A stretch of DNA of 64,000 nt from Betaproteobacteria bacterium (GTDB lineage Bacteria; Pseudomonadota; Gammaproteobacteria; Burkholderiales; Burkholderiaceae_C): the NCBI GenBank assembly GCA_016868355.1, contig VGHB01000013.1, positions 5,985 through 69,984 on the forward strand. The letters are read 5' to 3'. The translations under genes and the position numbers were made by a program. The notes beneath the pieces were generated by a model. That model was not told the DNA's origin. It worked only from the letters and a program-made list of their open reading frames with translations, and ran no database searches. Shown in pieces: positions 7,679 to 37,517 of the stretch. Every line of letters begins with the position of its first letter. Position 1 is the stretch's first letter.

Positions 7679-7724
7679 AGAGGATGATTTGAAAGAGAGC
7701 TGCGCCAGCCCGGGTAGTGCAAGC

Positions 7725-8679: not shown

Positions 8680-11505
8680 TTACAGTTTGGCGCGCAAAGC
8701 TAGGAAATACTGTCTTCCGTTTTGATGCCAATAACCGGGCGCGTTCACATTCAGATAGTAGGTGTGACGAATCGGATCGTTGAGGTTGTTGCCATCAAAG
8801 TGCAGGCTGATGTCCTTGGTGATGCGATAACCCAGCGACATCGACAGGCTGCCGGCACCCGCATAGCGGTGCTGGCCGTTGTACTGCGTGATCACGCCAG
8901 CGGCATTGACCAGGGGCGTGAGCGTGCCATTTCCGACAAAGCCGATGGCGTAGTCGGAGCGATAGTTCCAAGCCAGACTGGCTGTGAGCTTGCTGTCTTC
9001 GTAGAAGCCCCGCATGTTGTAGGTGCGGGTTGAGGTACCCAGCAGCGGTGCACCATCGGCGTCTTTCGAGTCCACATAGGTGCCGTTCACCCCCAAGCCG
9101 AAGCCGCCACCAAAAGGCAGTTCCATGGCGGCTTCAGCCCCCTTGAGCTTGCCGGAAACCCCGATGCGAGAGCTCACCAGATAGGTCGTTACTTTGTTCT
9201 GCGCAATATTGAAGTAATCGATTGACGAGGTACCCGTCTTGACATAATTCTCCAGGCTTTGCGTGAACACCCCGGCAGACACATAGGCACGCGGGGCAAA
9301 GTAACGGGCCCAAGACAGGTCGACGTTATTGGACAGGATGGGCTTGAGGTTGGGGTTGCCGCTGGACCCGGTCAACAGAGTGTCGTTCAGGCTGACCGCA
9401 CCGGCGAGCTCGTTGTAATTGGGGCGGCCCAGACTGCGCGAGATGCCCACCCGAATATCATTCTGCCGATCAAGCTTCCACCGCAGGTTGAAACTGGGGA
9501 GCACGGCGTTGTTTTCAGTGGTGTTCAGGCGAGGCAGGTACGTGGCAATGCGCGAACCCACGATGGCACCGGGCACCGCACAGGGTTTCAAGACGGCGCA
9601 CTGCCCCAAGGCTTGGTACGACAAAGAATCAACTTCTGTCTTGGCCAAGCGAACCCCAAAATTGCCGCTCTTGCTGGCGTCAAGCTCAAACTCGCCCATT
9701 GCGTAGGTGGCCGTGTTCTGTTCCTTGATCTTGTAGCCACTAGTCAGTACGTCGTTCAGGCCCGGGGTCCAGTTGATGTACTTGTCGGTAAAGGCCTTCA
9801 TCTGTGCCATGTCATAGCGGAAGATGTCGCGCGGGAAGTTTCCGCTAGCCCCGTTAAACCAATTGGCCGGGTAGGACGTAGCGGGCACCGGCACGGCCGA
9901 TGCGGGCACCACGGTGGACTTGACCACCGAGCCACCGGTGATCAGGGTGAAGGGAAAGTCAGGCGATGACGAGGGAATCGGGCCTGCTGCATTGTCCTGA
10001 GCATTCCAGCGCGGGTTGACTACCGCGTAGCTGCGGTCGTGCGTCGAGCGGCGCGCACCGAACTTGATGTTGGTGAGGAAGCCAGTGGCCATCTTGTAGT
10101 CGCCATCCAAGTGGAAGTAGGACTCTTTGTCCAGGGCCTTCACTGCTGCGCCCTGGTTGCTCAGCAGTGAAAAGTTGGCGACGTTTCGCAGGTTTATGGG
10201 TTTGCCATCGGCGCCATTGATGGTGTACTGCGCCGGAGCATCAGGCGTCTGACTGAACTTGACGGTGGATGGACTGACCAGGCCATAGACCAAGCTGGGC
10301 TGCGACGCTGTGGTCCCACTGCCTTCTGTGTAGCCGGCGCGGCCCCGAATGCTGAAGGCCGAAGTCAGGTTGTACTTGGCGTCCAAGTCCCAGAATGAGC
10401 TCGTGGACTGGGCCCCCTGACGGTTGAAGTGGTCGAACTGCAGACCCACCACATTGGAAGTGGCACCGGTGGGGCGGGTGATGGTGGCCGAGGTCACCAC
10501 ATCACCGGTGATGACAGGGTCCCGAATCAGGTAGCTCGCATTGTTGACCAAGCCGTATGGCAAGGCATAGGCTGAGCTGTTGTAGTTGTCAGCGTTGAGT
10601 TCAGCGCGGAACAAAGAGGCGTTGACCTCGAGGGCTTTGCTGGGTTTGAACTGCAAGCCCAAGTAGCCACCGCTGCGCTGACGCACGCCTTCGAACATAG
10701 CCGAGTTCAAGCTGCCGGTCATGCGCTTGCCGGCCAAGTCGGGGTTACCGGAAGCTGTGGCCTGCGCCACAGTAATCACGTTGTAGCCAAAAATCTCTTG
10801 GCCATCGCGCCGCAGGTGACGATTTTCCTTGAAGACCTGCACCAGCAAGCCCATGGTGTTGTCGCCGTTCTTCCAGTTGATCAGGCCACTGACCTGCGGG
10901 TCGGTCTTGTTGGCTAAGGCGGCATGCACCATGCCCAAAGAGACTTCTCCACTGAGCGCTTGCCGGAAGCTCAGTGGCTTGCGCATGATGATATCCACGC
11001 TGCCGGAAATACCGCCTTCGGTAATGTCTGCACGGCTGCTCTTGTAGACGATGGTCTGACCGATGATCTGGGAAGGCATGAGACCGAAGCCCACGCTGCG
11101 GCCGCTACCGGCCTGATCGCCGACGTGCCAGTCACCCGAACTCAGCGCATGCCCGTTGACCGTCACGAGGTTGAGGTTGGGACTGGTGCCACGAATGGCC
11201 ACTCGCTCAGCTTCATCCATGGCCAATGCACCACCGTACTGCACGTTAACCCCGGGAAGGCGCGACAGCGCATCGGCAATGTTCTTGTCAGGCATCTTGC
11301 CGATGTCTTCGGCCGTGATGACATCCACATTGGTATCAGCGGCTCGTTTGGTGACCAGCGACTGTTCGATGGAGGCCCGGATCCCGGAGACTTCAACCCG
11401 TTGGGGCGCGTCCTTGGGTGCGGCCTGCTGGGCTTGCGCACCGGCAGCCAGGCTGAACAGCAGCGTTGATACCGCAACGGCGATGGGCTCTTGGCGGAAT
11501 TTCAT
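8680..11505 (-). CDS. TonB-dependent receptor (carbohydrate-scavenging type)
   Basis: The ATG at 11505 is preceded by GGAGA 8 nt upstream. Signal MKFRQEPIAVAVSTLLFSLAAGAQA. Plug region VEVSGIRASIEQSLVTKRAADTNVDVITAEDIGKMPDKNIADALSRLPGVNV. C-terminal ..QYFLALRAKL beta-barrel end. Confidence 0.9.
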   Translation of the reverse strand: MKFRQEPIAVAVSTLLFSLAAGAQAQQAAPKDAPQRVEVSGIRASIEQSLVTKRAADTNVDVITAEDIGKMPDKNIADALSRLPGVNVQYGGALAMDEAERVAIRGTSPNLNLVTVNGHALSSGDWHVGDQAGSGRSVGFGLMPSQIIGQTIVYKSSRADITEGGISGSVDIIMRKPLSFRQALSGEVSLGMVHAALANKTDPQVSGLINWKNGDNTMGLLVQVFKENRHLRRDGQEIFGYNVITVAQATASGNPDLAGKRMTGSLNSAMFEGVRQRSGGYLGLQFKPSKALEVNASLFRAELNADNYNSSAYALPYGLVNNASYLIRDPVITGDVVTSATITRPTGATSNVVGLQFDHFNRQGAQSTSSFWDLDAKYNLTSAFSIRGRAGYTEGSGTTASQPSLVYGLVSPSTVKFSQTPDAPAQYTINGADGKPINLRNVANFSLLSNQGAAVKALDKESYFHLDGDYKMATGFLTNIKFGARRSTHDRSYAVVNPRWNAQDNAAGPIPSSSPDFPFTLITGGSVVKSTVVPASAVPVPATSYPANWFNGASGNFPRDIFRYDMAQMKAFTDKYINWTPGLNDVLTSGYKIKEQNTATYAMGEFELDASKSGNFGVRLAKTEVDSLSYQALGQCAVLKPCAVPGAIVGSRIATYLPRLNTTENNAVLPSFNLRWKLDRQNDIRVGISRSLGRPNYNELAGAVSLNDTLLTGSSGNPNLKPILSNNVDLSWARYFAPRAYVSAGVFTQSLENYVKTGTSSIDYFNIAQNKVTTYLVSSRIGVSGKLKGAEAAMELPFGGGFGLGVNGTYVDSKDADGAPLLGTSTRTYNMRGFYEDSKLTASLAWNYRSDYAIGFVGNGTLTPLVNAAGVITQYNGQHRYAGAGSLSMSLGYRITKDISLHFDGNNLNDPIRHTYYLNVNAPGYWHQNGRQYFLALRAKL

Positions 11506-11563
11506 CAGAGTGTCTCCAGTCACTAGACCTATGGCCCAGTATAGAGAGGGCCATTCGATCGAT

Positions 11564-11588: not shown

Positions 11589-12311
11589 CTAGCCTGTGAC
11601 CCGGCCTGCGCGGGTGTCCTCCAAACCCGCGGCAAACCAGGAGGTCATGACTTCCAACCGGGTCAGCGCAGTACCCACGGTTACCGACCAGGCCCCTGCC
11701 TGCAGGGCGCAGGCAGCCCGATCAGGGGTGTCATACCGGCCCTCTGCCATGACCCGGCAGCCCGCGCGCGCCAAATCGGCGACCAGAGCCAGGTCGGGCT
11801 CTGCCGGCATGGGGCCAGTGATGTAGCCCGACAACGTGGTGCCGATGATGTCAAAGCCCATTTGCCAAGCCTGCAGGCCGTCCTCCAAACAAGAGGCGTC
11901 GGCCATGGCCAGACAACCCTGCTCATGAACGGCCTGCAGCAGTTCGACCAATTGGCAGGGACGGCTGCGCTGGGTAGCGTCCACGGCGATTACGTCGGCA
12001 CCGGATGCGGCCAAGGACAGCACATCTTGGCGCAGCGGTGTAATGCGCACTGGCCAGTCGGGAAGGTCGCGCTTGACGATGCCAATGATGGGCACCTGCG
12101 TTGAGGCACGCACCCGTGCCAGACGCCGAACTCCTTCCACCCGCAACGCGCGCGCGCCGCCAACCACGGCCGCCTGAGCCATGCGCACGACCACATCGTC
12201 ATGATCCAGAGGGCCGCCGTCCACCGGCTGACAAGAAACCACCAATCCGCCCCGCAAGCGGTCGTGCAACAGCGGCATGTTCCAACGCGTCGATTGGGGC
12301 TGTGCTGCCAT
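11589..12311 (-). CDS. nanE: N-acetylmannosamine-6-phosphate 2-epimerase
   Basis: 240 aa. The motifs GGLVVSCQPVDGGPL .. ALRVEG .. VPIIGIVKRDLPDWPVRITP match the NanE signature blocks (VSCQ, IGIVKRD). Confidence 0.85.
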   Translation of the reverse strand: MAAQPQSTRWNMPLLHDRLRGGLVVSCQPVDGGPLDHDDVVVRMAQAAVVGGARALRVEGVRRLARVRASTQVPIIGIVKRDLPDWPVRITPLRQDVLSLAASGADVIAVDATQRSRPCQLVELLQAVHEQGCLAMADASCLEDGLQAWQMGFDIIGTTLSGYITGPMPAEPDLALVADLARAGCRVMAEGRYDTPDRAACALQAGAWSVTVGTALTRLEVMTSWFAAGLEDTRAGRVTG

Positions 12312-13096
12312 CAGGACAGGGCCTCCAATTCAGCCGGGGGGCGACCCACATTCACCTCGAAGCGGTAACGATCGGCCCGGTAGATGGTCTTGCCATACTC
12401 AAAGGCTTGGCCGAGAGTCGAAAACACCTGACGCTCCACCATCAGCGCTGGGCTGAATGGTGCCACGTCCAGCAAGAGCGCCTCATCCTCTGACAAGACC
12501 GTGGCCTGGATCTCCTGTGCGGCATTACGGGGTACCACGCCGTAATCCCGACGCAGCACTTCGTAAAGCGACTCCACTGCAAAACACTCCACGTCAAAGC
12601 CCGGCAGCATCTGAAGGCACAGGTAGGTCTCCTCCAGGGCCATCGGCTCGCCGCTGGCCAGTCGCAGGCGGCGCAACTCTAGCACCCGGCTACCCGGGAC
12701 CAATTTCAGGTTGCGGGCTACCCGCGCGTCTGCTCGCGTGGCGCGCGACGATAGGATTTCGCTGGAGGGCACCAAACCACGCGCGGCCATGTCCTCTGAA
12801 AAGGATCGCAGCAACAGGGGCTTGAGCCAGCTTTGTCCCGAGACAAAAGTGCCCGCACCCTGTCGCCGCTCCAGCACCCCGTCTTGCTGAAGATCGCGCA
12901 GGGCACGGCGCAGCGTCTCTCGCGCCACGCCCATGCGCGCGGCCAACTCCCGTTCGGGCGGTAAACGCATCCCCTCACCCGCTTGCTGCAAGATAGCCTT
13001 CAGGCCCCGCTTGAGTTCTTCGCGCCGCTGCGCCCGGTACATGTCGATTCGCTTCCCTGCGGCCAAGCCGCCGTGTTGCAGGAACAGGTCAATCAT
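12311..13096 (-). CDS. GntR/HutC-family transcriptional regulator with UTRA effector domain (NagR/DasR-like)
   Basis: 261 aa. Winged-helix LPPERELAARMGVARETLRRALRDLQQDGVLERRQGAGTFV followed by a UTRA-like C-terminus. Its stop shares one base with the nanE ATG. Confidence 0.85.
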   Translation of the reverse strand: MIDLFLQHGGLAAGKRIDMYRAQRREELKRGLKAILQQAGEGMRLPPERELAARMGVARETLRRALRDLQQDGVLERRQGAGTFVSGQSWLKPLLLRSFSEDMAARGLVPSSEILSSRATRADARVARNLKLVPGSRVLELRRLRLASGEPMALEETYLCLQMLPGFDVECFAVESLYEVLRRDYGVVPRNAAQEIQATVLSEDEALLLDVAPFSPALMVERQVFSTLGQAFEYGKTIYRADRYRFEVNVGRPPAELEALS

Positions 13097-13102
13097 AGAA
13101 CA

Positions 13103-13124
13103 AATGGACCATTTGGTCTAATTT
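13103..13124. promoter_or_regulatory. Imperfect palindrome AATGGACCA-TT-TGGTCTAAT; candidate operator of the adjacent GntR/HutC regulator in the divergent promoter region
   Basis: AT-rich 22-mer in the 73-nt gap between the gntR-like start (13096, minus) and the SBP gene start (13170, plus). The arms match 7/9. TGGTCTA / TAGACCA-type half-sites are typical of HutC-subfamily operators such as DasR/NagR dre sites. Confidence 0.45.
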
Positions 13125-13169
13125 TGAGGCCAACAAGGTATAGTTCCTCAGCTCAACTGGCAGCAGTCT

Positions 13170-14447
13170 GTGAACAGAAGATCGTTCTACACCACCTTGG
13201 GCGCCAGCACGGCGTGGGCGTGGTGCGCTGCAGCCGGCGCGGTGGCGGCGCCTGCGGTGGCAGTTCCATCGAAGAGCCTGACCCTGTGGACCATGCAGTT
13301 GGCCCCCTTTCACAACGACTATGTGAAGGGGCTGCTTGACAACTTCGAGGCCCGGCATCCGGGTGTACGGGTGAAGTGGGTCGACGTGGCTTGGGCAGAA
13401 ATGGAGCGCAAGGTCCTGGCCAGCCTGGCCGCGGGTACGGCGCCCGATGTGGTCAACCTCAACCCTCAGTTCTCAGCACGGTTGGCGGAACTGGGCGCTT
13501 TGGAAAATCCAAGACGCCACCTCTCTGATCAAGAGATCGGTGCCTTTGTGCCAGCAGCTTGGCACGCCAATCAGTTGGCTGGAGTGCCCTTCGCATTGCC
13601 CTGGTACTTGAGCACCACGATCCACGTGGTTCGCCAAGACCTCCTGGAGCAATCGGGCGTGCAAGCGCCGCGCAGCTTTGATGAATTGCCCGCGGTAGCG
13701 CAAGCCCTGCGTCGACATGCACAGTGCTACGCCTGGTTCGCCCCCATGGATGGATCGCTGGCGCTGGAAACACTGGTGTCCATGACAGGAGCCTTGCTAA
13801 GCCCCGACGGTTGCCGCCCGGCATTCGAAGGAGAGACAGGCCGCCTAGCCTTTGAGTTTTTACACCGCCTGTATCGTCAAGGCTGGGTACCGCCGACCGT
13901 GCTTACCGAAGGCCACCGCGGCGCGGTGCAACAGTTTTTGGCTGGCGATGTGGCAATGATGCCCACTGGCATGCAGTTCATCTCCCAGATGAAGCGGACC
14001 AACCCCCAACTGCATCAGCACCTGCGGATCACACCCCAATGGCTACGACCGGGCACCCCGCCCAACATCGCTGTGATGAACCTGGCCGTACCGCGAACAG
14101 CCCGTAACCCGGAGCTGGCGATGAGGCTGGCGCAGTTCATAGCCAACAGTGACAACCAACTCGACCTGGTGAAGCGGGTACCCTTGCTGCCCAGCACTCG
14201 CCGCAGCTATGAGGACCCCTTTTTCGAACGGTCCACTGGTGACGACTTACTGGATGAAGCCCGGCGGGTGTCGCAACAACAGGTGTTCGAAGGTGCGGTT
14301 CAAGTGCCGCCCTTGCGCCACTACGCCAAGTTGCGTGCGAGCTTTGTGCGGCAGTTGCAGCTGGCAATGACAGGGCGGATCGGCTCTGAAGCCGCTATTG
14401 TCGAGATCAGCCGGGTGTGGGTACCCTTGCTAGGGTGCCGCAAATGA
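13170..14447 (+). CDS. CUT1-type sugar ABC transporter substrate-binding protein (Tat-like signal)
   Basis: 425 aa, GTG start. (M)NRRSFYTTLGASTAWAWCAAAGAVAA signal, then LTLWTMQLAPFHNDYVKGLLDNFEARHPGVRVKWVDVAW, typical of SBP_bac_1. Confidence 0.85.
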   Translation: MNRRSFYTTLGASTAWAWCAAAGAVAAPAVAVPSKSLTLWTMQLAPFHNDYVKGLLDNFEARHPGVRVKWVDVAWAEMERKVLASLAAGTAPDVVNLNPQFSARLAELGALENPRRHLSDQEIGAFVPAAWHANQLAGVPFALPWYLSTTIHVVRQDLLEQSGVQAPRSFDELPAVAQALRRHAQCYAWFAPMDGSLALETLVSMTGALLSPDGCRPAFEGETGRLAFEFLHRLYRQGWVPPTVLTEGHRGAVQQFLAGDVAMMPTGMQFISQMKRTNPQLHQHLRITPQWLRPGTPPNIAVMNLAVPRTARNPELAMRLAQFIANSDNQLDLVKRVPLLPSTRRSYEDPFFERSTGDDLLDEARRVSQQQVFEGAVQVPPLRHYAKLRASFVRQLQLAMTGRIGSEAAIVEISRVWVPLLGCRK

Positions 14448-15351: not shown

Positions 15352-16205
15352 GACAGCCGCACTTGCCCCGATCAATCGCCTGGAGACGCCGCCAGGATGC
15401 AGCCCTTCGATATGCCGCACTGGTGATGGCCACGGCCATCACGGTGGGTCCGTTCCTGTGGCTGTTGAGTACCTCTTTGAAAGGACCGGGTGAGGTGCTG
15501 CAAGGCAGCGGCATGAGCCTGTGGCCGCAAAGCCCAACCCTGGAGAACTATCGGCAGGTTTGGGCTTCACAGCCGATGCTGCGCTATCTAATGAACAGCA
15601 TGACCGTATCCCTACTGGCCGTGGGATGCAACCTGTTGCTGTGCAGCTTGGCTGCCTACCCGCTGGCGCGGATGAAGTTCGCCGGCCGCAGCTGGATATT
15701 CATCGGTCTATTGGCCACGATGATGATGCCGTTTCAGTTGCTGATGATTCCCTTGTACGACTTGGCGATGTCGCTTGGGCTACACAACAGTACCTTGGGG
15801 CTTGTCCTGCCGCATGCCTGCACAGCTTTTGGCATCTTTTATCTCCGCCAAGCTTTCCTGGCTGTACCCCAGGCGCTGGAGGACGTTGCGCTGATGGAAG
15901 GCGTGGGGCGGCTGCAACTGTGGTGGCATGTCATGTTGCCGCTGGTGCGACCCTCACTAGCCACGCTGGCCGTATTTAGCTTTGTGGCCGTATGGGGCGA
16001 CTTTTTGTGGCCCCTGATTCTCTTGGACGACCCGCAGCACTACACCCTGCCGCTGGGTGTCAATCGCCTTGTTAACGCATTTTCGCTGGACTGGCGGTGG
16101 GTCGCCGCCGGGGCGGTGCTGTCGCTCATCCCCATTCTTATGGTCTTCGTTTTCAGCCAGCGCTTCTTCATCGAGGGAGCGTTGAAGGGGGCCATCAAGG
16201 CATGA
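15348..16205 (+). CDS. Sugar ABC transporter permease (MalG/UgpE-like)
   Basis: 285 aa. EAA loop LEDVALMEGVGRLQLWWHVMLPLVRP. ATGA overlap with the preceding gene. Confidence 0.85.
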   Translation: MRQPHLPRSIAWRRRQDAALRYAALVMATAITVGPFLWLLSTSLKGPGEVLQGSGMSLWPQSPTLENYRQVWASQPMLRYLMNSMTVSLLAVGCNLLLCSLAAYPLARMKFAGRSWIFIGLLATMMMPFQLLMIPLYDLAMSLGLHNSTLGLVLPHACTAFGIFYLRQAFLAVPQALEDVALMEGVGRLQLWWHVMLPLVRPSLATLAVFSFVAVWGDFLWPLILLDDPQHYTLPLGVNRLVNAFSLDWRWVAAGAVLSLIPILMVFVFSQRFFIEGALKGAIKA

Positions 16206-18892
16206 GCGTACTGCCCCCTGTGCCCCAGCCGACGAACCAGCGTATCGCCGTCGATGTGGTGGTGCACACCCATTGGGACCGAGAGTGGTACATGGATCGG
16301 GAAACCACCTTGGCACGCTTAGAAGAGGTCATGCAGCGCGTGGTAGCTGATCTGGATGCGGACCGGCTGCAACAGTTCCTCTTCGACGGCCAGACGGTGG
16401 CGCTCGAAGACCTGGCCAGCCGCGCGCCTAGCGGCCTTATCCAGCGCCTGAGGCAGCACGCGCAGGCTGGGCGACTGGTGTTGGGTCCGTGGTACGTAGC
16501 CAGCGATGAGTTCTTGGTCAGTGGAGAGTCCTTGCTGCGCAACCTTGCGCTGGGCATGGCGCAGGCGCGCGCCTGGGGTGGGGCCCAGGCCGTGGGCTAT
16601 CTTCCCGACACCTTTGGACATGCAGCTCAAATGCCGCAGATCTTGCGGCAGTTCGGTATCGCTCACGCGGTGGTGTGGCGCGGCGTCGAGTCCCCTTATG
16701 ACCTCTTAGATTGGCATGCGCCTGACGGTTCCATCGTGACCACGGTGTACCTCACAGAAGGCTACTACCTGCATCCACTGCATGGGCCAAGCTGGCTGCA
16801 TGAAACACAGTTGTTATTGAGCAAGCTTCAGGCGCGGCGCGACCCCGCCCTGGCGGGCCCCCTGCTGCTGACGCACGGAGGTGATCACCTTGCGCCGCAT
16901 CCCGAACTTGCGGCGCGCATTCAGGACTTCAATCGTAAGCAAGACCAGTTCGATCTCCAACAAGGTACGTTGCTCAAACACGTCCAAACCTTGGAGGCGC
17001 GTAAGGCCAAGCGACCCACACTCAGCGGTGAACTGCGCCAAAACCGCTCTGCCTTCGTACTGCCTGATGTACTGTCAACACGGCGCTACCTCAAGCGGCT
17101 GCACCAGACAGCAGAAGACCGATTGGTGGGGCATATCGAGCCGCTCATGGCCCAAACCGGAGCGCGGGCCACTGAGCATGCCTGGCTGCAGAGCGCTTGG
17201 CGCCTGCTGCTTCAGCAACAGGCGCATGACTCGATTTGCGGCTGCAGCCGCGACGAGGTGCATCAAGATATGGTGCAGCGATTTGCACAGTTGCATCGCT
17301 GCCTAGACGCGCTGGAGCAGCGCTTGCTGTACCGGGCAGGCCTGGTGGAATGGGACCGGCATACCGCAGACCGCGACGCATCAGTAAGAGCGACCGTTGA
17401 TGAACCGGTAGAGCATCAGGTTCCAAATGGGGGCGTATTCGCCGATGACACACGGTTCACCGTTTTCAATCCTTTGCCGTGGCAACGCCACGCATGGTTT
17501 GAGGTGAGTCTGTTCTTGAGGGGGCCGTCCCGGACCAGTTTGGGTGTTACAGGCCCCGAGGGCGAGACGATCCCGACGGTGGTGTTGAATATTGAACCGG
17601 CCTTTGAACTGGTCTCACCTCTGGACGAGTTTCCAGAGCGCTTGGACGGCCACCGCTACACCTTGGCGCTGAAACTGTCCCTTGGCGGCCTGGCAAACGC
17701 GCCACTGCAGATCATGCAGATCGCAGCATCGCCAGGCTCTGCTCCCGCGCGCCTGCCCGCACCGGCTGCGCAGTTGGACAACGGCGCTTGGCGGGTGGAG
17801 CTCAGCGCGCAGGGTCAACTGCTGCTGACTGATCGCCGCCAAACCCCGACCGTCGCTCGTCCTCTGGGTTTGATGTTGGAGCCCGATGCAGGTGACACCT
17901 ACAACCACAGTCCGGTCTTGGGCGCGCAGGCCTTGCTCAGCCCGGGGTGGCGTCTGCTGGAGCAGCGTCACGACGGCCCGTTGCAAGAGCTCCGGCTGGG
18001 AATAGCGCTTCAGGTACCGCAAGGCCTAGACGAGCAACGTCTGGCGCCTACGCTGACAACGGTGATTTGCAATGGCGAGTTGCGGCTTCGACTGCTTGGC
18101 GACGAACCACTGCTGCATCTGTATCTGAGCTGGGACAACCAAGCTCGAGACCAACGCACACGCTTGGTCCTTGGCGGGGTTGCCAGCGATACCGGTACCA
18201 CTTGGAGAGACACAGCTTTCGCCTGGACCGCGCACCCCGTGGTGCTGTCTTCAGTGCCGCACGACATAGGGCGCGGTGAGGCAACGGTATGTGTACAGCC
18301 CAGCCTGAGTGCCTTGGCAGCAGGCCCGTGGTGGGTGGCCCACCGTGCGCTGCATGAGCACGAAATCATCGTCGACCCCTGGGCCGTCAGCCGCGGTGAC
18401 CACGACCCAGGGCTGGCCTTGGCCCTCACCTTGGTGCGAAGCGTAGGCTGGATGTCGCGGCGCGACCTTCGAACCCGCGGCGTGGGGGCCGGACCTGATC
18501 TGCCGACGCCACAAGCGCAGTGCCTGGGGGAGGACCGGTTTGAGCTGGTACTGGTTTCACCCGAGCGCGATGCGCCGACTCATGTCCTGCTGCAGCGCGC
18601 CCAAGACTTCCGCTGGCCGGTACGACGGCTTCGCGGCCATGCGCAGCGCTGGGCTGCTTCGCTGAACCTACCCCGCACCGCTCTGCAACTCAGCGCATGT
18701 CGACCGTTGGAAGACGGTCGTCTTGAGTTGCGCCTGTGGAACCCAAGCGATGCACTGATCACCTTGGATGTGCCGCTAGGCATCTGGACGCGGGTGCGGG
18801 CCGATGGGCAAGTATGGAACGGTGATCAGCGTGCTGTACAGCCGCATCAGTTGATCACGCTTCACAGCATGGCCACCTGGAGCTTGGAGTGA
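16202..18892 (+). CDS. Glycoside hydrolase family 38 (alpha-mannosidase / mannosylglycerate-hydrolase-like), cytoplasmic
   Basis: The ATG at 16202 overlaps the permease stop (ATGA). The N-terminus MSVLPPVPQPTNQRIAVDVVVHTHWDREWYMDRE carries the GH38 HxHxDxxW metal-site block, followed by LGPWYVASDEFLVSGESLLRNL and YLPDTFGH. No signal peptide. Confidence 0.8.
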   Translation: MSVLPPVPQPTNQRIAVDVVVHTHWDREWYMDRETTLARLEEVMQRVVADLDADRLQQFLFDGQTVALEDLASRAPSGLIQRLRQHAQAGRLVLGPWYVASDEFLVSGESLLRNLALGMAQARAWGGAQAVGYLPDTFGHAAQMPQILRQFGIAHAVVWRGVESPYDLLDWHAPDGSIVTTVYLTEGYYLHPLHGPSWLHETQLLLSKLQARRDPALAGPLLLTHGGDHLAPHPELAARIQDFNRKQDQFDLQQGTLLKHVQTLEARKAKRPTLSGELRQNRSAFVLPDVLSTRRYLKRLHQTAEDRLVGHIEPLMAQTGARATEHAWLQSAWRLLLQQQAHDSICGCSRDEVHQDMVQRFAQLHRCLDALEQRLLYRAGLVEWDRHTADRDASVRATVDEPVEHQVPNGGVFADDTRFTVFNPLPWQRHAWFEVSLFLRGPSRTSLGVTGPEGETIPTVVLNIEPAFELVSPLDEFPERLDGHRYTLALKLSLGGLANAPLQIMQIAASPGSAPARLPAPAAQLDNGAWRVELSAQGQLLLTDRRQTPTVARPLGLMLEPDAGDTYNHSPVLGAQALLSPGWRLLEQRHDGPLQELRLGIALQVPQGLDEQRLAPTLTTVICNGELRLRLLGDEPLLHLYLSWDNQARDQRTRLVLGGVASDTGTTWRDTAFAWTAHPVVLSSVPHDIGRGEATVCVQPSLSALAAGPWWVAHRALHEHEIIVDPWAVSRGDHDPGLALALTLVRSVGWMSRRDLRTRGVGAGPDLPTPQAQCLGEDRFELVLVSPERDAPTHVLLQRAQDFRWPVRRLRGHAQRWAASLNLPRTALQLSACRPLEDGRLELRLWNPSDALITLDVPLGIWTRVRADGQVWNGDQRAVQPHQLITLHSMATWSLE

Positions 18893-20373
18893 AGCGCTCC
18901 CTGGCAGCCATCCCGGTGGATGCAAGACCCGTGGTGCGCAGCCAAGTTCAAGACATGGTGAGGTGCTGCGGATGGGAGCTTCGAATGCCGCCCAGGTCAA
19001 TCCTGGGTCACCTCCGAAACCCCGGTGATCGGGATGCTTTGCAAAGTTGGCTCCTGGACCAAGCCCCTGAAGTCGATGGTTTCGTTATATCGCTGGATAT
19101 GTTGGTCTATGGTGGCTTGGTACCCTCTCGCGTCGTAGAGGATGACAGCCAGGACCTGCTGTCTCGGCTGGAACTGCTGCGCATGCTGCGCCGGCTCGTA
19201 CCAAAGAGGCCTGTCTTCGCCTTTGCTGCCACGATGCGTATTTCCAACAGTGCGGTGGCTGAAGAGGAAAAAGACTACTGGGCTGAATATGGGCCACTGC
19301 TGTGGGCGTGGTCATACCACCAAGACCGCGCGCAACAGATTGCCGACCGGCAAGAAGCAGCGCGCAGCCACGCCGAATTCTTGCATCTGGAAACGGCTAT
19401 ACCGGCAGGCATACGCCAGGACTACCGGCACACCCGACAGCGCAACCTTCAGGTGACCCTGCAGGCGCTGCAGGCCGTACGCGAAGGAATCGTCGACCGC
19501 TTGGTCCTGCCGCAGGACGACACTGCTGAGTTCGGACTGAACGTGGCTGAGCGTCGCGTTCTTCAGGCCCAGGTCCAGACTCTTGCGCTGCAAGATCGGG
19601 TCCCGATCTACGCAGGCGCTGATGAGGTCATGCACACACTGTGCGCAAGGATGATCACTGAGTTAGAGGCTCGCCCGGCCTTGCGTATTTCGCTGTTGCC
19701 CAGCGATCCGGTGGGTCTGTCTGGCCTGAAAGCACGGTATGAAGACCGGCCCGTGTTGGACTCCATAGCGGCCCAGATTGCTGCGGTGGGCGCTGTTGCA
19801 GTGAGCCACGCGGCACAGGCCGATGTGGTGCTGGCCCTGCACACCCGAGGCAAGGAACAGGGCGATTGGGCTATGGGCATCAAGCTGCCAGAGCCTACGA
19901 TCATCTCTGAGCACTGGATCCAAACACTGCAACACCTGCACAAGCGCAATAAACCCTGGGCGTTGGCCGACTTGGCCTACGCCAACGGTGGAGACCCCGA
20001 GTGGCTGCTGCACGGTGTTCCCGTGCCGGACGCCTACGCGGGTTGGAATACCGCCAGCAACACCCTGGGCAGCGTCCTATCCCAGTGCGCATTGGGCGTC
20101 GGACATCTGCAGGAGGCGCCCTCGCGACGCGCCCTCAGCCTGCGCCTGCTTGAAGACATGCTCTACCAAGCCCAGGTGCGGCAAGCCGTGCGCGAGACGG
20201 TAGACGAGTCAGTGTGCACGCCTCTGGCTCTGCTGCAAACCGCCCGAGCGTTGATGGTGCCGGCCTCCCGGTCTTTCGCACAGGCTTACGGCTTGAGCCA
20301 TTGCGTGTCAGATCTAAGCCTGCCATGGGACCGCAGCTTTGAGGTCGATTTGCAACTGGAGGCCTTTGCATGA
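18889..20373 (+). CDS. DUF4127-family protein (function unknown)
   Basis: 494 aa. The GTG start overlaps the GH38 stop (GTGA). The N-terminus (M)KRSLAAIPVDARPVV .. DGFVISLDMLVYGGLVPSRV matches my memory of the DUF4127 N-terminal pattern (LPLDERP .. GGL..SR). The assignment is from recall only. Confidence 0.55.
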   Translation: MKRSLAAIPVDARPVVRSQVQDMVRCCGWELRMPPRSILGHLRNPGDRDALQSWLLDQAPEVDGFVISLDMLVYGGLVPSRVVEDDSQDLLSRLELLRMLRRLVPKRPVFAFAATMRISNSAVAEEEKDYWAEYGPLLWAWSYHQDRAQQIADRQEAARSHAEFLHLETAIPAGIRQDYRHTRQRNLQVTLQALQAVREGIVDRLVLPQDDTAEFGLNVAERRVLQAQVQTLALQDRVPIYAGADEVMHTLCARMITELEARPALRISLLPSDPVGLSGLKARYEDRPVLDSIAAQIAAVGAVAVSHAAQADVVLALHTRGKEQGDWAMGIKLPEPTIISEHWIQTLQHLHKRNKPWALADLAYANGGDPEWLLHGVPVPDAYAGWNTASNTLGSVLSQCALGVGHLQEAPSRRALSLRLLEDMLYQAQVRQAVRETVDESVCTPLALLQTARALMVPASRSFAQAYGLSHCVSDLSLPWDRSFEVDLQLEAFA

Positions 20374-21956
20374 GCCGACCCTGGCAGTGCGACATCGCCG
20401 TCATTGGTGCCAGCCTTGGCGGAGTGCTGGCTGCTTGGCGCGCCAGCCAAATGGGCCATAGCGTGCTGTTGGTGTGCGAGGAGCCTTGGATCGGCGGGCA
20501 AATGTCAGCCCAGGCCGTACCCCCCGACGAACATGCATGGATCGAGTCGGGCGGCGCGTCGGCCAGCTATCTTGGTTTTCGGCGCGACATCCGTGCTCAC
20601 TACCGAGCGCAAGCTGGCTTCCTGGACGACGCACGCCTGACCGAAGGTACCAATCCCGGGGACGGCTGGGTCAGCCGGCTTTGCTTTGAGCCAGTACTGG
20701 CCGCGCGCTGGATGGAGCGCCTGCTGCAACCCGCTCAGGCGCAGGGCAGCTTACGCGTCTTGCGACTGTGCCGCCCTGTGGCTGCTGCACGGCGCGGCTC
20801 GCAGATCGACAGCATCACCGTCAGGCGCGCAGCGCACAGCGGCTGCGACACCGTCTTTGCCTCTGTCTTCATCGACGCCACGGACACCGGAGAGTTGTTG
20901 TGTTTGGCTGAAGTGCCCTATCGAGTGGGTAAGGAAGGCCGGTCCGAGTTTGCCGAGCCCGATGCACCAGAGCAGGCCGACCCCTGGGATCAACAACCCA
21001 TCACCCACGTCATGGCCCTGCGCCGATGGGATCGACCCGGCCCGGTTGGAGTGCAGCCCGAGGGCTATGCACGCTGGCGTGCCCAAGGGGTCCCGGGCCA
21101 TCAACACCGCTTGTTCAGCCCGCACCTGCCTGGTCGGCCGCCTGGCCAATCCCACACCCTGCCCTTCAGTGCCGAAGAAGACAGCCCCACACTGGATTGG
21201 TGGCGCTACCGCCGCATCGTCAGTGCCCGTCAATGGCAGCCGGGTCGGGGATCAGCGCACGATGTGAGCCTGCTGAACTGGGCACAAAACGACTACGCGA
21301 TGGCCCCATTGATCGATGGGCCCATCAGCCGTCACCATATAGAGGCCGAAGCCCGACAGCTCACGACCTGCCTCCTGCACTGGCTGCAGACCGAAGCACC
21401 CCGGCCCGATGGCGGACAGGGCTACCCCCATTGGCAGCCGGCACCGGACGTCCTGGGCACTGCGGATGGCCTGGCCCTGCGGCCCTACGTTCGGGAGTCC
21501 CGCCGCATCAAGGCCTGCACCACGCTCACACAGGTCGACCTTATGAAACGCAGCGCCAAGCTAATTGATGGGGTGTCCATCGGCTGGTATCCCATGGACA
21601 TCCACCCGACCTGCCGTTCTGGCCACAGCGTGAATACAACGGTTGAGCCCTTCGTTATTCCGCTGGGCTGCATGGTTCCCACGGAGGTCGACAACGTGTT
21701 ACCTGGCTCCAAGAACTTGGGAGTGACCCACTTGGTCAATGCCTGTACCCGAGTGCATCCCATCGAATGGGCCATCGGGGAAGTGGCTGGCACCATGGCC
21801 AGCGTGCTCTTGGACCATCGGTGCGCAGCACAAGACCTCCTGCGTGACGGCAGCCCTGCGCGAACCCTGTACACGCGGCTGAATGCATACGGCGTACCAC
21901 GCGTTTGGCCCGATGAGTTGTCGAGTCGCCGCCACCAGGGGGCATCAACACCCTGA
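20370..21956 (+). CDS. FAD-dependent oxidoreductase (PF12831-like, function unknown)
   Basis: 528 aa. ATGA overlap with the DUF4127 gene. Dinucleotide-binding N-terminus CDIAVIGASLGGVLAAWRASQMGHSVLLVCEEPWIGGQ. C-terminal NVLPGSKNLGVTHLVNACTRVHPIEWAIGEVAG resembles the closing FAD motif of this family. Confidence 0.7.
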   Translation: MSRPWQCDIAVIGASLGGVLAAWRASQMGHSVLLVCEEPWIGGQMSAQAVPPDEHAWIESGGASASYLGFRRDIRAHYRAQAGFLDDARLTEGTNPGDGWVSRLCFEPVLAARWMERLLQPAQAQGSLRVLRLCRPVAAARRGSQIDSITVRRAAHSGCDTVFASVFIDATDTGELLCLAEVPYRVGKEGRSEFAEPDAPEQADPWDQQPITHVMALRRWDRPGPVGVQPEGYARWRAQGVPGHQHRLFSPHLPGRPPGQSHTLPFSAEEDSPTLDWWRYRRIVSARQWQPGRGSAHDVSLLNWAQNDYAMAPLIDGPISRHHIEAEARQLTTCLLHWLQTEAPRPDGGQGYPHWQPAPDVLGTADGLALRPYVRESRRIKACTTLTQVDLMKRSAKLIDGVSIGWYPMDIHPTCRSGHSVNTTVEPFVIPLGCMVPTEVDNVLPGSKNLGVTHLVNACTRVHPIEWAIGEVAGTMASVLLDHRCAAQDLLRDGSPARTLYTRLNAYGVPRVWPDELSSRRHQGASTP

Positions 21957-22006: not shown

Positions 22007-23095
22007 ATGTCGACCATCGAATTCAAATCTCTGAGCAAGCAATTCGGCGCGCAAGCGGTGCTGCAGGACATCAACCTGCGCGTCGAGGAGGGCGAATTGG
22101 TGGTGCTTGTAGGACCCTCGGGATGCGGCAAGACAAGCTTGCTGCGGGTGCTGGCTGGGCTGGAGCCCGCAAGCGCGGGTCAAGTTCTGATCAATGGACG
22201 GGATATGACCGATGCCCTGCCCAGCGATCGGGGGCTGGCCATGGTGTTCCAGTCATATGCCCTGTATCCGCACATGACGGTGCAACAGAACCTCAGCTTT
22301 GGCATGCGCATGCGCGGCACGGCCCCATCGGACCTCCAGGCCCGGCTGAATCGGGCGGTTGAAGTCCTTCAACTGAAAGATCTGTTGCACCGCCGCCCAG
22401 GCGAACTTTCTGGTGGTCAATGCCAGCGGGTGGCTATCGGGCGCGCCATCGTTCAGGAGCCAGGCGCCTTTCTTCTGGATGAACCGCTGAGCAATCTTGA
22501 TGCAGAGCTTCGACTGCACTTGCGGCTGGAGCTGATTCGTTTGCACCGCGAACTGCGAGCCACTATGGTCTGCGTCACACACGATCAGGTCGAGGCGATG
22601 ACCATGGCCGACCGGATCGTGGTGCTGCGCGATGGAAGGGTCGAACAGGTGGGTACCCCGCAGCAGATTTACCAGCAACCCCGAAACCGCTTTGTGGCTC
22701 AGTTTTTGGGCTCTCCACCCATGAATCTTTTGGCGTGTAACGAGGTGCCGCTGCCAGGTCATCAGTCTCGTAACGCAACAGCTGCAGGCGCAGTCGGCGC
22801 CCAAGCAAGTGCCGTCAGTGCCACACACTGGGGTCTACGGCCCGAGCATTGGCGCGTAGTTGACTCAAGCCTTCCAGACTCGATACCAATGCAGGTCTTG
22901 CACATCGAACGTCTGGGCGGCCAGAACTGCCTGCATGGCACAGTAGGACCAGGCCAGCAGCCGTTATGTGTACAGACCGACGCCTTGCTGCCCGCAGAGC
23001 GTGGCCAAATCCTGCATCTGCAGCCACAGATCGAGCAGATCCACCTGTTTGACGCGCAGGGGCAGCGGCTGCAGTCCGCCACTTCGAAACCGTGA
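22007..23095 (+). CDS. ugpC: Sugar ABC transporter ATP-binding protein (MalK/UgpC type)
   Basis: 362 aa. Walker A GPSGCGKTS, signature LSGGQCQRVAIGRA, Walker B FLLDEPLSNLD, plus a MalK-like C-terminal regulatory domain. Confidence 0.9.
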   Translation: MSTIEFKSLSKQFGAQAVLQDINLRVEEGELVVLVGPSGCGKTSLLRVLAGLEPASAGQVLINGRDMTDALPSDRGLAMVFQSYALYPHMTVQQNLSFGMRMRGTAPSDLQARLNRAVEVLQLKDLLHRRPGELSGGQCQRVAIGRAIVQEPGAFLLDEPLSNLDAELRLHLRLELIRLHRELRATMVCVTHDQVEAMTMADRIVVLRDGRVEQVGTPQQIYQQPRNRFVAQFLGSPPMNLLACNEVPLPGHQSRNATAAGAVGAQASAVSATHWGLRPEHWRVVDSSLPDSIPMQVLHIERLGGQNCLHGTVGPGQQPLCVQTDALLPAERGQILHLQPQIEQIHLFDAQGQRLQSATSKP

Positions 23096-23105
23096 GGCCG
23101 CAAAC

Positions 23106-24143
23106 ATGAGCACACCCTCAACACCGTCGAAGATGCGAGCCGAAGCGCTGGAATCAGCCAACGCAGTTGCCGATCAGCTTTCGCGGGATCAGGATACCTT
23201 GTCAGCGTTGGTGTCCGACCTGCTGCGCCGCCCGCCCAAGCACATCGTTACCATCGCTCGCGGCAGCAGCGACCATGCCGCGGCCTACTTTGCTTACCTG
23301 TGCATGCTGCGCCTGGGGCGTTATGTCACGTCGCTGCCGCCTTCGCTGCTGAGCTTGCATGGGGCTCCCTTGCAGCGTATCGGCACCTTGGCATTGGCCT
23401 TTTCGCAAAGCGGCCAGAGCCCCGATCTGGTGCGCGCCGCCGGCTACTTCAGCGGGCGCAGCACCCGAAGCGTAGCCCTGGTCAACGACGCCCAGTCGCC
23501 CTTGGCCCATGCGGCGCGAACGGTGTTGCCGCTGCATGCCGGCAAGGAATCCAGTGTGGCCGCTACCAAGAGCTTTGTTGCGCAACTGGTGGCCGGTGCC
23601 CGGCTCCTGGCCACTTGGCAGGGCGACGAACGCCTGCAAGCGGGTTTACAGGCGCTTCCGGCCGCCTTAGAGCACGCCTCGGGGCACGACTGGGGTGCAG
23701 CGCAGCACGCGTTGCTGAAGGCCGAGCGGTTGATGGTGGTCAGCCGAGGCACCGGTATGGCGGTGGCCTTGGAGGCCGCACTGAAATTCAAGGAAACCTG
23801 CTGCATCCAAGCCGAAACCTTCAGCAGCGCCGAGCTGCGCCACGGGCCCATGGCCCTGATCGACCAGGGCTATCCCCTGTTGATCTTGGCACCACGCGGC
23901 CCTGCTCAAGAAGAGATGCGGCAACTGGCTCAAGAAATGCAAGCCCGTGGCGCGCGGGTGCTGTTGGCTGTCACAGGGCCCGGTTCCCCTGGCAACCTGC
24001 CCTGCACCACCGCAGCGCACCCCGATTTGGACCCGGTGTGCCTGGTGCAGTCGTTTTATCTGATGGTCGAAGCCTTGGCGCGCGCTCGCGGCCGCGACCC
24101 CGATAAGCCCAGCTACTTGTCGAAGGTGACGCTGACCACCTGA
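23106..24143 (+). CDS. SIS-domain sugar-phosphate isomerase/deaminase (NagB-II / AgaS-like glucosamine-6-P deaminase)
   Basis: The ATG at 23106 lies inside the longer track ORF 22968..24143. It gives MSTPSTPSKMRAEALESANAVADQL .. HIVTIARGSSDHAAAYFAYL .. LAFSQSGQSPD, a two-SIS-domain layout of ~345 aa. Confidence 0.7.
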   Translation: MSTPSTPSKMRAEALESANAVADQLSRDQDTLSALVSDLLRRPPKHIVTIARGSSDHAAAYFAYLCMLRLGRYVTSLPPSLLSLHGAPLQRIGTLALAFSQSGQSPDLVRAAGYFSGRSTRSVALVNDAQSPLAHAARTVLPLHAGKESSVAATKSFVAQLVAGARLLATWQGDERLQAGLQALPAALEHASGHDWGAAQHALLKAERLMVVSRGTGMAVALEAALKFKETCCIQAETFSSAELRHGPMALIDQGYPLLILAPRGPAQEEMRQLAQEMQARGARVLLAVTGPGSPGNLPCTTAAHPDLDPVCLVQSFYLMVEALARARGRDPDKPSYLSKVTLTT

Positions 24144-25585: not shown

Positions 25586-25598
25586 GACAAACTCCGCT

Positions 25599-27265: not shown

Positions 27266-27368
27266 GCCTTCAGCCTGAGGAGCTGCTTGCCAAGGACCTC
27301 GTGACTGTAGCGAGGCACCAGCCGACCTGACCTCCGTAGGACCCCTGCTTGCGGTGTTTCAGTGGGAT

Positions 27369-27398
27369 GTGCATACTTTATTCAACCAGGGTATGCAC
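27369..27398. promoter_or_regulatory. Perfect 8-bp inverted repeat GTGCATAC-N14-GTATGCAC in a divergent intergenic region
   Basis: Read directly: GTGCATAC at 27369-27376 and GTATGCAC at 27391-27398, flanking an AT-rich spacer. It sits in the 253-nt gap between the speB-like gene (minus) and the TonB-dependent receptor gene (plus). Confidence 0.3.
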
Positions 27399-27518
27399 CT
27401 TGGGCCAATGGAATAGAGCGTGGGTTTGCATCCATAACGGGTTCACGACTCTAGCGCGACACGGACTCTGGTCTATGTCTGCGGTCGTAAACCGAGCAAT
27501 GAGTCCAGGAGACCCCCC

Positions 27519-30074: not shown

Positions 30075-30094
30075 TGTTCAAGGGGCAGGGCGCT

Positions 30095-36014: not shown

Positions 36015-36230
36015 GGAGGCCCCGCCCTTGACATTTCGGCGTGGTGCGTGCATTCCGCGATCATCGCTCAAAAGTCAGGCCATGCCCTTGTTCACCGCCG
36101 CCAGACGCAACCGCACACGGCGCGAGCGATGGCACCGGTGCCCGGCCAGCGCCGCAGGCCCTGATGCCTGCGGGCTCTGATGCCCCCAGGCCCTTTCTAT
36201 ACTGCGCACCGCACAGACCCGAGACCACAC

Positions 36231-37478: not shown

Positions 37479-37517
37479 ACGGCGCAGCCAGCTGGGTTGA
37501 AGGGCAGGACCACCGGC

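Follow-up and report, generated by a model that had tools for sequence, protein, structure and literature searches.

A conserved operon ties DUF4127, a protein family without assigned function, to N-acetylmannosamine metabolism by synteny and gene fusion

An operon holding two families without assigned function

A 64,000-nucleotide stretch of a betaproteobacterial genome of Burkholderiales type (assembly GCA_016868355.1, contig VGHB01000013.1, positions 5,985 to 69,984; hereafter the window) carries an operon in which a DUF4127 protein is encoded between a glycoside hydrolase family 38 (GH38) protein and a PF12831 flavoprotein. The gene order is a solute-binding protein (SBP), two permeases, GH38, DUF4127, the flavoprotein, a MalK-type ATPase and NagB-II, with the gntR-nanE pair divergent from it (Table 1). 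The operon is conserved, two of its families lack an assigned function, and DUF4127 is tied to N-acetylmannosamine (ManNAc) metabolism by synteny and by fusion. The occurrence of this gene set across phyla points to an undescribed breakdown route for a bacterial cell-envelope sugar. Pfam and NCBIfam scans agreed with the open reading frames (ORFs) and families (CUT1 importer, GH38, DUF4127, PF12831, SIS protein, divergent gntR-nanE) given in a preliminary description of this DNA. A Tat-like signal peptide was found on the SBP, and none on GH38, DUF4127 or the flavoprotein.

The preliminary description had taken four 4-nt stop/start overlaps to lock GH38, DUF4127 and the flavoprotein into one translational unit. 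All four overlaps were verified in the sequence (ATGA at 15348, ATGA at 16202, GTGA at 18889 and ATGA at 20370), and an operon is evident. However, at least two more lie elsewhere in the window (5017-5020 and 26288-26291), and because such overlaps are ordinary here, they are evidence of operon organization and of nothing rarer.

The DUF4127 protein matches the PF13552 hidden Markov model with residues 7-488 on profile positions 3-488 of 489 (E = 2.4e-117), and its family comprises 1798 representative clusters in a library at 50% identity. Invariant residues are D11, R13, R81, R117, D211, D245, D361, N366, W386, N387, T388 and N391. The stretch P9, D11 and R13 is invariant across 112 diverse members and lies upstream of the start of a public gene call for the identical protein (P0001, 462 aa), which begins 32 codons downstream; the GTG start at 18889 is therefore supported, and that of P0001 is probably mis-called. 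Invariant Asp, Arg, Asn and Trp residues are typical of sugar, carboxylate, phosphate or metal binding, while a glycine-rich dinucleotide motif and an invariant lysine are both missing. The AlphaFold (AF2) model is of high confidence (pLDDT of 93.7) and is built of alpha/beta domains. A fold search for catalytic clues, as had been suggested earlier, returned no informative match: when the model was compared with the PDB by Foldseek, the best template-modeling (TM) scores were 0.2-0.29, to unrelated Rossmann or TIM proteins, and the DUF4127 profile gave 0 matches to PDB sequences even at E of 10. The literature that we searched held no mention of DUF4127 or PF13552, and only irrelevant list mentions of PF12831. 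Both families were said before to be without assigned function, and this holds, the literature being empty and the PDB offering neither a sequence nor a fold match beyond a generic flavin adenine dinucleotide (FAD) domain.

Neighborhoods of DUF4127, the flavoprotein and GH38

A search for DUF4127 loci with one genome per species returned at least 544, and the best 80 were taken for a neighborhood census. They come from Pseudomonadota, Bacillota, Chloroflexota, Deinococcota, Actinomycetota, Mollicutes, Melainabacteria and others. To call partners, we used tblastn with the window proteins together with de novo clustering of the ORFs, and scanned the representatives of the clusters with Pfam. Many of the contigs are short, so that the counts are lower bounds and absences are weak. 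NanE was present in 37 of the 80 loci, the SBP and two permeases of the same ATP-binding cassette (ABC) importer in 34-35, a ROK kinase in 32 and the PF12831 flavoprotein in 28-29. GHL10, the commonest extracellular partner, occurred in at least 20, an RpiR regulator in 15, GH38 in 14-15, a GntR regulator in 12, a PF00756 esterase in 10 (with SGNH and alpha/beta esterases in others) and GDPD in four. Two representative proteins (P0192 and P0253) are DUF4127-ROK fusions, which place the step of DUF4127 immediately before or after that of a sugar kinase. The module is thus no accident of a single genome but recurs across many phyla, and the frequencies of NanE and ROK, together with the fusions, make ManNAc its likely key intermediate, in line with the preliminary description. 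The densest DUF4127-GHL10 association that we saw is in an Acholeplasmataceae metagenome-assembled genome (MAG; locus L061, 1778-13874), where three large GHL10 proteins border a tandem array of three DUF4127 paralogues.

Gene order is conserved over long distances. A MAG of another betaproteobacterium has the identical operon, with the same order and overlaps (DUF4127 identity 69%). The operon of Pseudoduganella aquatica (51%) is conserved as well and includes, in addition, a ROK kinase and an aldose epimerase. In loci of proteobacteria and Bacillaceae, DUF4127 has permease orthologues of 50-72% identity as neighbors, and Paenibacillus alvei (L038) has a GHL10-ABC-DUF4127-FAD-NanE-ROK-RpiR locus. 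The flavoprotein gene immediately follows DUF4127 in 19 loci, overlapping it by 4 nt in five and separated by 4-12 nt in six, the latter from Bacillaceae, Paenibacillus, Chloroflexota and Deinococcota. The PF12831 protein of Deinococcus sp. KNUC1210 is divergent; its gene shares a 4-nt overlap with that of DUF4127, and NagZ and a GH20-like gene are adjacent. We had considered this protein, which gave no tblastn match, as a non-orthologous replacement of the FrdA/KstD type; its Pfam match to PF12831 (E = 1e-113) rejects that.

Other loci have no flavoprotein. Ten ABC-type loci with NanE belong here, as do two plasmids with a phosphotransferase system (PTS): that of Carnobacterium sp. 17-4 encodes NanE, a HAD-IIB phosphatase, DUF4127, a Lac/cellobiose-family PTS IIC and RpiR, and that of Priestia megaterium encodes an acetylxylan esterase, DUF4127, a ScrK-like ROK protein, ManA, a Glc-family PTS IIBC, NanE and RpiR. 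The PTS variants would fit a phospho-disaccharide split to ManNAc-6-phosphate (ManNAc-6-P). Given the ROK fusions and the PTS- and ABC-type loci that lack the flavoprotein, the evolutionary core is DUF4127 with a sugar kinase, NanE and an importer; PF12831 and GH38 are add-ons. The trio of GH38, DUF4127 and flavoprotein, earlier seen as the unit, therefore does not stand as such: DUF4127 does without the flavoprotein in these loci, the flavoprotein occurs alone with importers, and GH38 is found in only about 15 of the 80.

The dinucleotide-binding motif of the flavoprotein (G13-A-S-L-G17-G18) is invariant among 56 homologues, and from family and motif we predict FAD binding and redox activity. 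In its AF2 model (pLDDT of 91), the FAD domain aligns with two-domain flavoproteins. Foldseek returned only generic FAD-domain matches (TM 0.2-0.44), among them a halogenase, fumarate reductase, geranylgeranyl reductase and pyranose oxidase, and these do not indicate a function. Homologues of 35-40% identity make up minimal cassettes of LacI, SBP, two permeases and the FAD protein, with or without UgpC, in Streptomyces, Rhizobium (with a divergent SGNH esterase), Thalassospira, Deinococcus sp. QL22 and Allomeiothermus (Thermaceae); the loci (L088, L089, L090, L092, L093 and L177) are on plasmids or chromids. A SusC/SusD locus of Parabacteroides (L094) encodes no enzyme other than the flavoprotein. 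Both settings suggest a self-sufficient sugar-converting enzyme. We had also entertained an obligate two-component enzyme made of DUF4127 and the flavoprotein, and rejected it because each is found without the other. The flavoprotein is best described, from its genomic distribution, as an independent and frequently recruited accessory enzyme rather than an obligate subunit; oxidation-elimination chemistry is no more than a possibility. A Mesobacillus plasmid encodes NanE, ROK, a 612-aa protein, PF12831 and an AXE1 esterase, with no DUF4127. There (M. foraminis, L175, 7004-8842) the 612-aa protein, which has no Pfam match, sits between ROK and PF12831 at the place expected of DUF4127, and it may be an analogous enzyme.

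GH38 gave Pfam matches above the gathering scores to PF01074 (E = 9.5e-30) and PF09261 (E = 5.4e-11), and its nearest structures are the alpha-mannosidases of Streptococcus pyogenes and Enterococcus (2WYH and 3LVT). Alignment with 2WYH showed that the motifs HxHWDREW, PDTFG, GGDH and HDSICG are all kept. The C-terminal domain PF07748 was not matched by Pfam; a weak second HMMER stretch falls on the C-terminal region of 2WYH, and the length of the protein with R652, R654, E719 and R746 suggests that the protein has a diverged form of this domain. In a reverse census, 80 metagenomic GH38 loci comprised two close orthologues (69% and 49% identity) and 78 generic proteins (24-44%). DUF4127, PF12831 and NanE were present at both of the former and at none of the latter. 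When 17 sequences of the clade were aligned with 72 generic ones, H24, D26, D136, D228, H229, H342 and D343 proved to be conserved in either set. All family-conserved residues are kept, metal ligands and catalytic aspartates included, and only three substitutions are specific to the clade (M->T224, H->Q651 and K->R834). By these comparisons, the operon GH38 is a separate clade, predicted to be catalytically intact and dedicated to this context. It is not an MngB orthologue: the MngB equivalog model scored 316 bits against a cut-off of 1138.

Other loci bear on the role of mannose. An Anaerolineae locus has an unrelated GH38 subtype beside ROK-DUF4127-FAD-NanE, and in several Bacillaceae the slot of GH38, directly upstream of DUF4127, is filled by a short cytoplasmic GHL10+DUF4985 protein. 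In L008 and L011, the operon is followed by an AGE protein that resembles D-mannose isomerase and a PfkB protein that resembles fructokinase (the NCBIfam assignment covers L008 only), and ManA occurs in Priestia and two further loci. Because the catalytic and metal residues are intact and mannose-catabolic genes recur in related loci, GH38 would most simply be a true alpha-mannosidase and mannose a second product of the pathway. The preliminary description saw no further glycosidase with which an alpha-mannoside pathway would make sense; on the grounds just given, we find an alpha-mannoside part of the substrate plausible.

A candidate route for an envelope oligosaccharide, and its rivals

ManNAc stands at the junction of peptidoglycan with wall teichoic acids or secondary cell-wall polymers (SCWPs) in most Gram-positive bacteria. 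We know of no enzyme or pathway that recycles or scavenges the ManNAc junction unit, and to our knowledge no beta-N-acetylmannosaminidase family has been described. A literature search for a link between N-acetylmuramic acid (MurNAc), NanE and FAD, and for ManNAc or SCWP catabolism, found nothing relevant except a Listeria ManNAc operon (RpiR, ROK, PTS, HAD, an oxidoreductase and NanE), which, unlike the operon described here, has no DUF4127. Pyruvylated SCWPs share the disaccharide beta-ManNAc-(1->4)-GlcNAc (GlcNAc, N-acetylglucosamine) with the linkage units of wall teichoic acids (PMC6801904). In Paenibacillus alvei, which has the DUF4127 locus L038, the SCWP is a polymer of this disaccharide in pyruvylated form. 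The nearest structure to the SBP is 6WPM (E = 1e-62), MsBP of Synechococcus, whose cleft is cationic, whose preferred sugars are anionic or phosphorylated and whose gene lies beside mreBCD (PMC8938411). Among the partners, the NAGPA domain points to sugar-1-phosphate diesters, GDPD to glycerophosphodiesters and the esterases to O-acyl decoration. A sugar-1-phosphate diester is the bond that attaches wall polymers to MurNAc. A NAGPA phosphodiester glycosidase adjoins the module in the window, where it is fused to GHL10, and in Pseudoduganella. In the latter (L003, 1-1856), a protein of ~1500 aa beside NanE combines NAGPA with purple-acid-phosphatase N-terminal and metallophosphatase domains; it parallels the fusion in the window and likewise points to sugar-1-phosphate diester substrates.

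From the gene content and its conservation, the fusions, the cytoplasmic location and the intact GH38 active site, we infer a tentative route, to which we give a probability of roughly 45%. The module would import an envelope oligosaccharide that yields ManNAc and mannose, with DUF4127 freeing ManNAc or ManNAc-6-P, GH38 acting as alpha-mannosidase, the flavoprotein as an accessory, and a kinase, NanE, NagA and NagB-II as the funnel. The substrate would be a small oligosaccharide, probably acidic and O-acetylated, from bacterial envelope glycopolymers other than the peptidoglycan backbone; candidate sources are wall-polymer linkage units or SCWPs with beta-ManNAc-(1->4)-GlcNAc, carrying mannose-containing stubs. 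Fragments might be released outside the cytoplasm by the GHL10/NAGPA lipoprotein and taken up through a TonB receptor and then the CUT1 ABC importer. Cytoplasmic GH38 would take off alpha-mannose, and DUF4127, proposed as the core of the module and as a new glycosidase or lyase family, would release ManNAc, or ManNAc-6-P in PTS-type relatives. A sugar kinase and NanE would convert ManNAc to GlcNAc-6-phosphate (GlcNAc-6-P), and NagA and NagB-II would convert the latter to fructose-6-phosphate. The flavoprotein might strip a carboxyethyl-type decoration (a pyruvate ketal or a lactyl ether) or aid cleavage of a hydrolase-resistant bond, and the GntR regulator would govern both divergent operons through a 39-nt palindrome. 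The earlier idea of a ManNAc-related oligosaccharide, with possibly new chemistry, is thus right in outline, but the conserved unit needs the correction given above.

Several observations weigh against this route. In 36 of the 80 DUF4127 loci, mostly from Melainabacteria and Sericytochromatia, none of NanE, PF12831, ROK and GH38 is present, and for this reason the family may have a role other or broader than ManNAc release. DUF4127 has no structural homologue that offers a catalytic clue, and the specificity of the ROK kinases is not readable from sequence. The characterized GHL10 enzymes target peptidoglycan, not ManNAc polymers. SLH domains, sought because they would tie GHL10 to pyruvylated SCWPs, were not found in the large secreted GHL10 proteins beside DUF4127. 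Lastly, alpha-mannose and ManNAc are not known to occur together in a small fragment of any abundant envelope glycan, and the role of mannose is thus only loosely explained.

A more specific and bolder version is doubtful, although we consider it worth stating. Here DUF4127 would found a family that cleaves beta-N-acetylmannosaminyl bonds, for example in beta-ManNAc-(1->4)-GlcNAc or its 6'-phosphate, and PF12831 would be a widespread glycan-active class acting on 4,6-pyruvate ketals of mannose or ManNAc, on lactyl ethers, or by flavin-assisted cleavage. Such a class would explain the cassettes in rhizobia, Streptomyces and Thermaceae, the polysaccharide-utilization loci of Bacteroidota and, possibly, xanthan loci.

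The best-surviving rival, which we hold to be unlikely, is that the module degrades nonulosonic acids. DUF4127, perhaps with the flavoprotein, would replace the lyase NanA, splitting Neu5Ac to ManNAc and pyruvate and Kdn to mannose and pyruvate, while the esterases would remove O-acetyl groups. Known nan clusters encode the NanA lyase, NanK (ROK), NanE, an RpiR or GntR regulator, a SatABC-type importer and the NanS esterase, and CUT1-type ABC importers for sialic acid are known too. The present loci resemble them in NanE, in the ROK kinase of orthologous loci, in the RpiR/GntR regulators, in the CUT1-type importer, in recurrent esterases and in the NagA/NagB end. NanK-like and NanE genes occur without NanA: no match to NanA/DHDPS was found in the scanned window ORFs or in the 25 commonest families among the neighbors of 90 related ORFs. 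DUF4127 takes the place of NanA and can be fused to ROK, the numerous Arg and Asp among its invariant residues might serve in carboxylate and metal binding, and the recurrence of NanE together with mannose genes (ManA, or mannose isomerase with fructokinase) would be neatly accounted for. Unlike nan clusters, however, these loci have DUF4127, with or without PF12831, GH38 and GHL10, where the lyase should be, some have disaccharide-type PTS importers, and no sialidase or BNR family was found among the recurrent neighbors. A dedicated, intact GH38 clade and the GHL10 glycanases would be left without a role, and the flavoprotein without an obvious one. The lack of an invariant lysine in DUF4127 excludes a NanA-like Schiff-base mechanism. 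The Carnobacterium variant also argues against nonulosonic acids, as its PTS IIC is of the Lac/cellobiose family. That family carries beta-disaccharides, and we know of no PTS for sialic acid.

Less probable again is a second route for MurNAc. GHL10 would cut denuded strands, GlcNAc-MurNAc would be imported, and the flavoprotein would oxidize the lactyl ether (by reverse MurB-type chemistry or at C3), with DUF4127 completing its removal; a C2-labile intermediate would yield ManNAc, hence NanE. Consistent with this, no extracellular partner is commoner than GHL10, whose two characterized members (Cwp19 and DigH) cut the glycan strands of peptidoglycan. In Deinococcus sp. KNUC1210, the PF12831-DUF4127 pair has NagZ and a GH20-like gene as neighbors, MurR/RpiR-type regulators are present, and the whole window looks like a peptidoglycan-recycling island. 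The SBP homologue with its cationic cleft and its gene beside mreBCD would fit as well, and the fold neighbors of the flavoprotein include fumarate-reductase-type enzymes that desaturate next to carboxylates. On the other hand, a canonical MurQ already lies in the window downstream of a GHL10 gene, so a second route is not needed here; peptidoglycan has no mannose, leaving the GH38 clade and the mannose-catabolic genes unexplained; DUF4127 occurs in many loci without any flavoprotein; and the chemistry leading to ManNAc is speculative. A parallel with MurNAc catabolism nevertheless exists at the level of enzyme discovery. MupG (DUF871, GH170, a 6-phospho-N-acetylmuramidase) and NamZ (DUF1343, GH171, an exo-muramidase) were found from DUFs in MurQ/MurP/MurR operons. 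DUF4127 is similarly a cytoplasmic DUF-family enzyme whose amino-sugar operon includes a PTS or ABC importer and a regulator of RpiR type, and its likely job would be similar, namely to split a wall-derived N-acetylhexosamine disaccharide and so feed a kinase, epimerase or etherase. It differs in that it has no sequence or fold similarity to either protein and is partnered by NanE, not MurQ.

Plain use of an alpha-mannoside or N-glycan, in which GH38 does the work, DUF4127 and the flavoprotein are auxiliaries or passengers and NanE is a mere neighbor, has in its favor a standard, intact alpha-mannosidase-type GH38 and the mannose-catabolic genes of some loci, but it is largely refuted by the census, since about 65 of the 80 DUF4127 loci lack GH38 yet keep NanE, ROK, ABC genes and the flavoprotein, since none of the 78 generic GH38 loci has DUF4127, PF12831 or NanE, since DUF4127-ROK fusions exist, and since different phyla share both gene order and translational coupling. 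The probability that remains falls to substrates beyond the envelope-oligosaccharide route and these three rivals.

The flavoprotein invites comparison with redox-assisted glycoside cleavage, which is known from GH4 and GH109 (both NAD+-dependent) and from the 3-keto-glycoside pathway of Bacteroides with its Gfo/Idh/MocA dehydrogenase, lyase and hydratase. In those systems too, an oxidoreductase with a nucleotide cofactor is encoded beside glycan-processing genes, and GH4 holds in Lac/Glc-family PTS operons the position that DUF4127 holds in Carnobacterium and Priestia. By contrast, PF12831 has an FAD fold and is neither an NAD Rossmann protein of the GH4/GH109 kind nor a Gfo/Idh/MocA protein, DUF4127 has no dinucleotide motif, and each is found without the other. 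A second comparison is offered by the xanthan loci of Microbacterium and Paenarthrobacter, which combine an intracellular GH38, an esterase and an ABC importer with a regulator and an ~534-aa 'FAD-dependent oxidoreductase'; xanthan induces this flavoprotein 42-60-fold, and a PL8 lyase encoded nearby frees pyruvylated mannose (bioRxiv 10.64898/2026.04.20.719765; PMC12772297). The sub-operon of ABC, FAD and regulator genes has the architecture of the LacI+ABC+PF12831 cassettes, and its flavoproteins, XutN and PAI8, are putative members of PF12831; the replicons that encode them were not among the plasmid matches. Unlike the DUF4127 operon, the xanthan loci have neither DUF4127 nor NanE.

A multi-phylum module around a fold without a solved relative offers an experimental handle on the scavenging of ManNAc units. 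It also gives a first functional context to the PF12831 flavoproteins, which are very common in polysaccharide-utilization loci and in soil bacteria and are annotated generically. If the assignment of either DUF4127 or the flavoprotein were true, a new carbohydrate-active enzyme family would result, and with it a missing step in the turnover of microbial necromass. What results is a clearly delimited starting point for enzyme discovery; it does not yet amount to proof of a new mechanism.

The divergent genes and the wider window

Table 1. Coordinates and supporting matches of the operon and of related features in the window
Feature	Position	Strand	Evidence
Periplasmic SBP, CUT1 type, Tat-like signal peptide	13170..14447	+	SBP_bac_1/8, PF13416/PF01547; N-terminus MNRRSFYTTLG
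Two ABC permeases, ATGA overlap between them	14485-15351, 15348-16205	+	BPD_transp_1, PF00528
GH38 alpha-mannosidase-like, cytoplasmic	16202..18892	+	PF01074 + PF09261
DUF4127 protein	18889..20373	+	PF13552, full length
PF12831 FAD-dependent oxidoreductase-like, cytoplasmic	20370..21956	+	PF12831, E = 3.2e-82
MalK/UgpC-type ABC ATPase	22007..23095	+	PF00005 + TOBE_2; NF008653 at 418 bits
NagB-II-like double-SIS glucosamine-6-phosphate deaminase	23106..24143	+	PF01380 twice; NF046059 269 bits, below 430-bit cut-off
Imperfect palindrome, 39 nt, divergent promoter region	13089..13127	.	19-nt arms, 79% complementary, 1 nt apart
GntR/HutC-family regulator with UTRA effector domain	12311..13096	-	PF00392 + PF07702
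NanE, N-acetylmannosamine-6-phosphate 2-epimerase	11589..12311	-	PF04131, E = 8e-76; NF002231 284 bits, cut-off 189
TonB-dependent outer-membrane receptor, likely outer-membrane uptake step	8680..11523	-	TIGR01782 518 bits, cut-off 310
BadF/BadG-type sugar kinase, NagK_SO3507-like	7725..8660	-	PF01869; weak NF046058 match
Lipoprotein, GHL10 glycanase domain fused to NAGPA-type phosphodiester glycosidase domain	1682..4156	-	PF02638, E = 2e-48; PF09992, E = 2e-25; lipobox VLAC
Candidate NagA, Amidohydro_1-family protein	34863..36071	-	PF01979; position expected for GlcNAc-6-P deacetylase
Second GHL10 lipoprotein	47426-49057		lipobox TAGC
MurQ, MurNAc-6-P etherase	49063-49959		PDB 4S12, E = 9e-74

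The palindrome overlaps the sole sigma-70-like promoter match, no further copies beyond chance were found in a search of the window, and it is a candidate GntR/HutC operator. Orthologues of the GntR/UTRA regulator adjoin the operon in L001, L003, L005, L008-L011 and L095-96, and a TonB receptor lies beside NanE also in L001, L005, L007 and L010. There is no ROK gene in the operon of the window, although orthologous loci of other genera have a ROK kinase inside the operon; the BadF-type kinase is the candidate ManNAc/GlcNAc kinase of this genome. The GHL10+NAGPA lipoprotein, a proposed extracytoplasmic depolymerase, is encoded at the distal end of the run of genes that starts with the divergent gntR-nanE pair. 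With the second GHL10 protein, it runs counter to the earlier statement that no other glycosidase is present. Within the NanE-TonB operon (4163-7744), an Opp/Dpp-type SBP and two permeases are encoded with no ATPase genes nearby; this set may be a second importer that draws on shared ATPases from elsewhere and takes up a substrate resembling chitobiose or a muropeptide.

MurNAc-6-P etherase is not part of the operon, whose SIS protein is NagB-II-like; MurQ is encoded elsewhere in the window and starts 6 nt after the second GHL10 gene, a direct genomic link of GHL10 to MurNAc catabolism in this organism. The candidate NagA, which has orthologues (by tblastn) adjoining the operon in L005, L006, L021 and L096, would connect NanE to NagB-II. 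Judging by its predicted MurQ, AmpD-like, LdcA-like and candidate NagA proteins and its two GHL10 proteins, the window is a cell-wall scavenging island.

Downstream of the operon, the block 24113-36071 encodes a sodium:solute symporter, an AmpD-like Amidase_2 protein, an arginase-family protein, a second TonB receptor, a PF00144 beta-lactamase-family protein, a second BadF-type kinase, an HGSNAT-domain (NagX-like) protein, a transporter of the major facilitator superfamily (MFS) and the candidate NagA. The MFS match is generic, and we read the transporter as AmpG-like. The same peptidoglycan-recycling-like block also follows the operon in the MAG loci L001 and L002. Between the NagA block and a third TonB receptor (36180-38771) lie a Gate-domain membrane protein of the nucleoside-recognition type and then a weak Beta-lactamase2 match. 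The window also encodes an S13 D-Ala-D-Ala carboxypeptidase, an LD-carboxypeptidase (LdcA-like) and a DAO flavoprotein.

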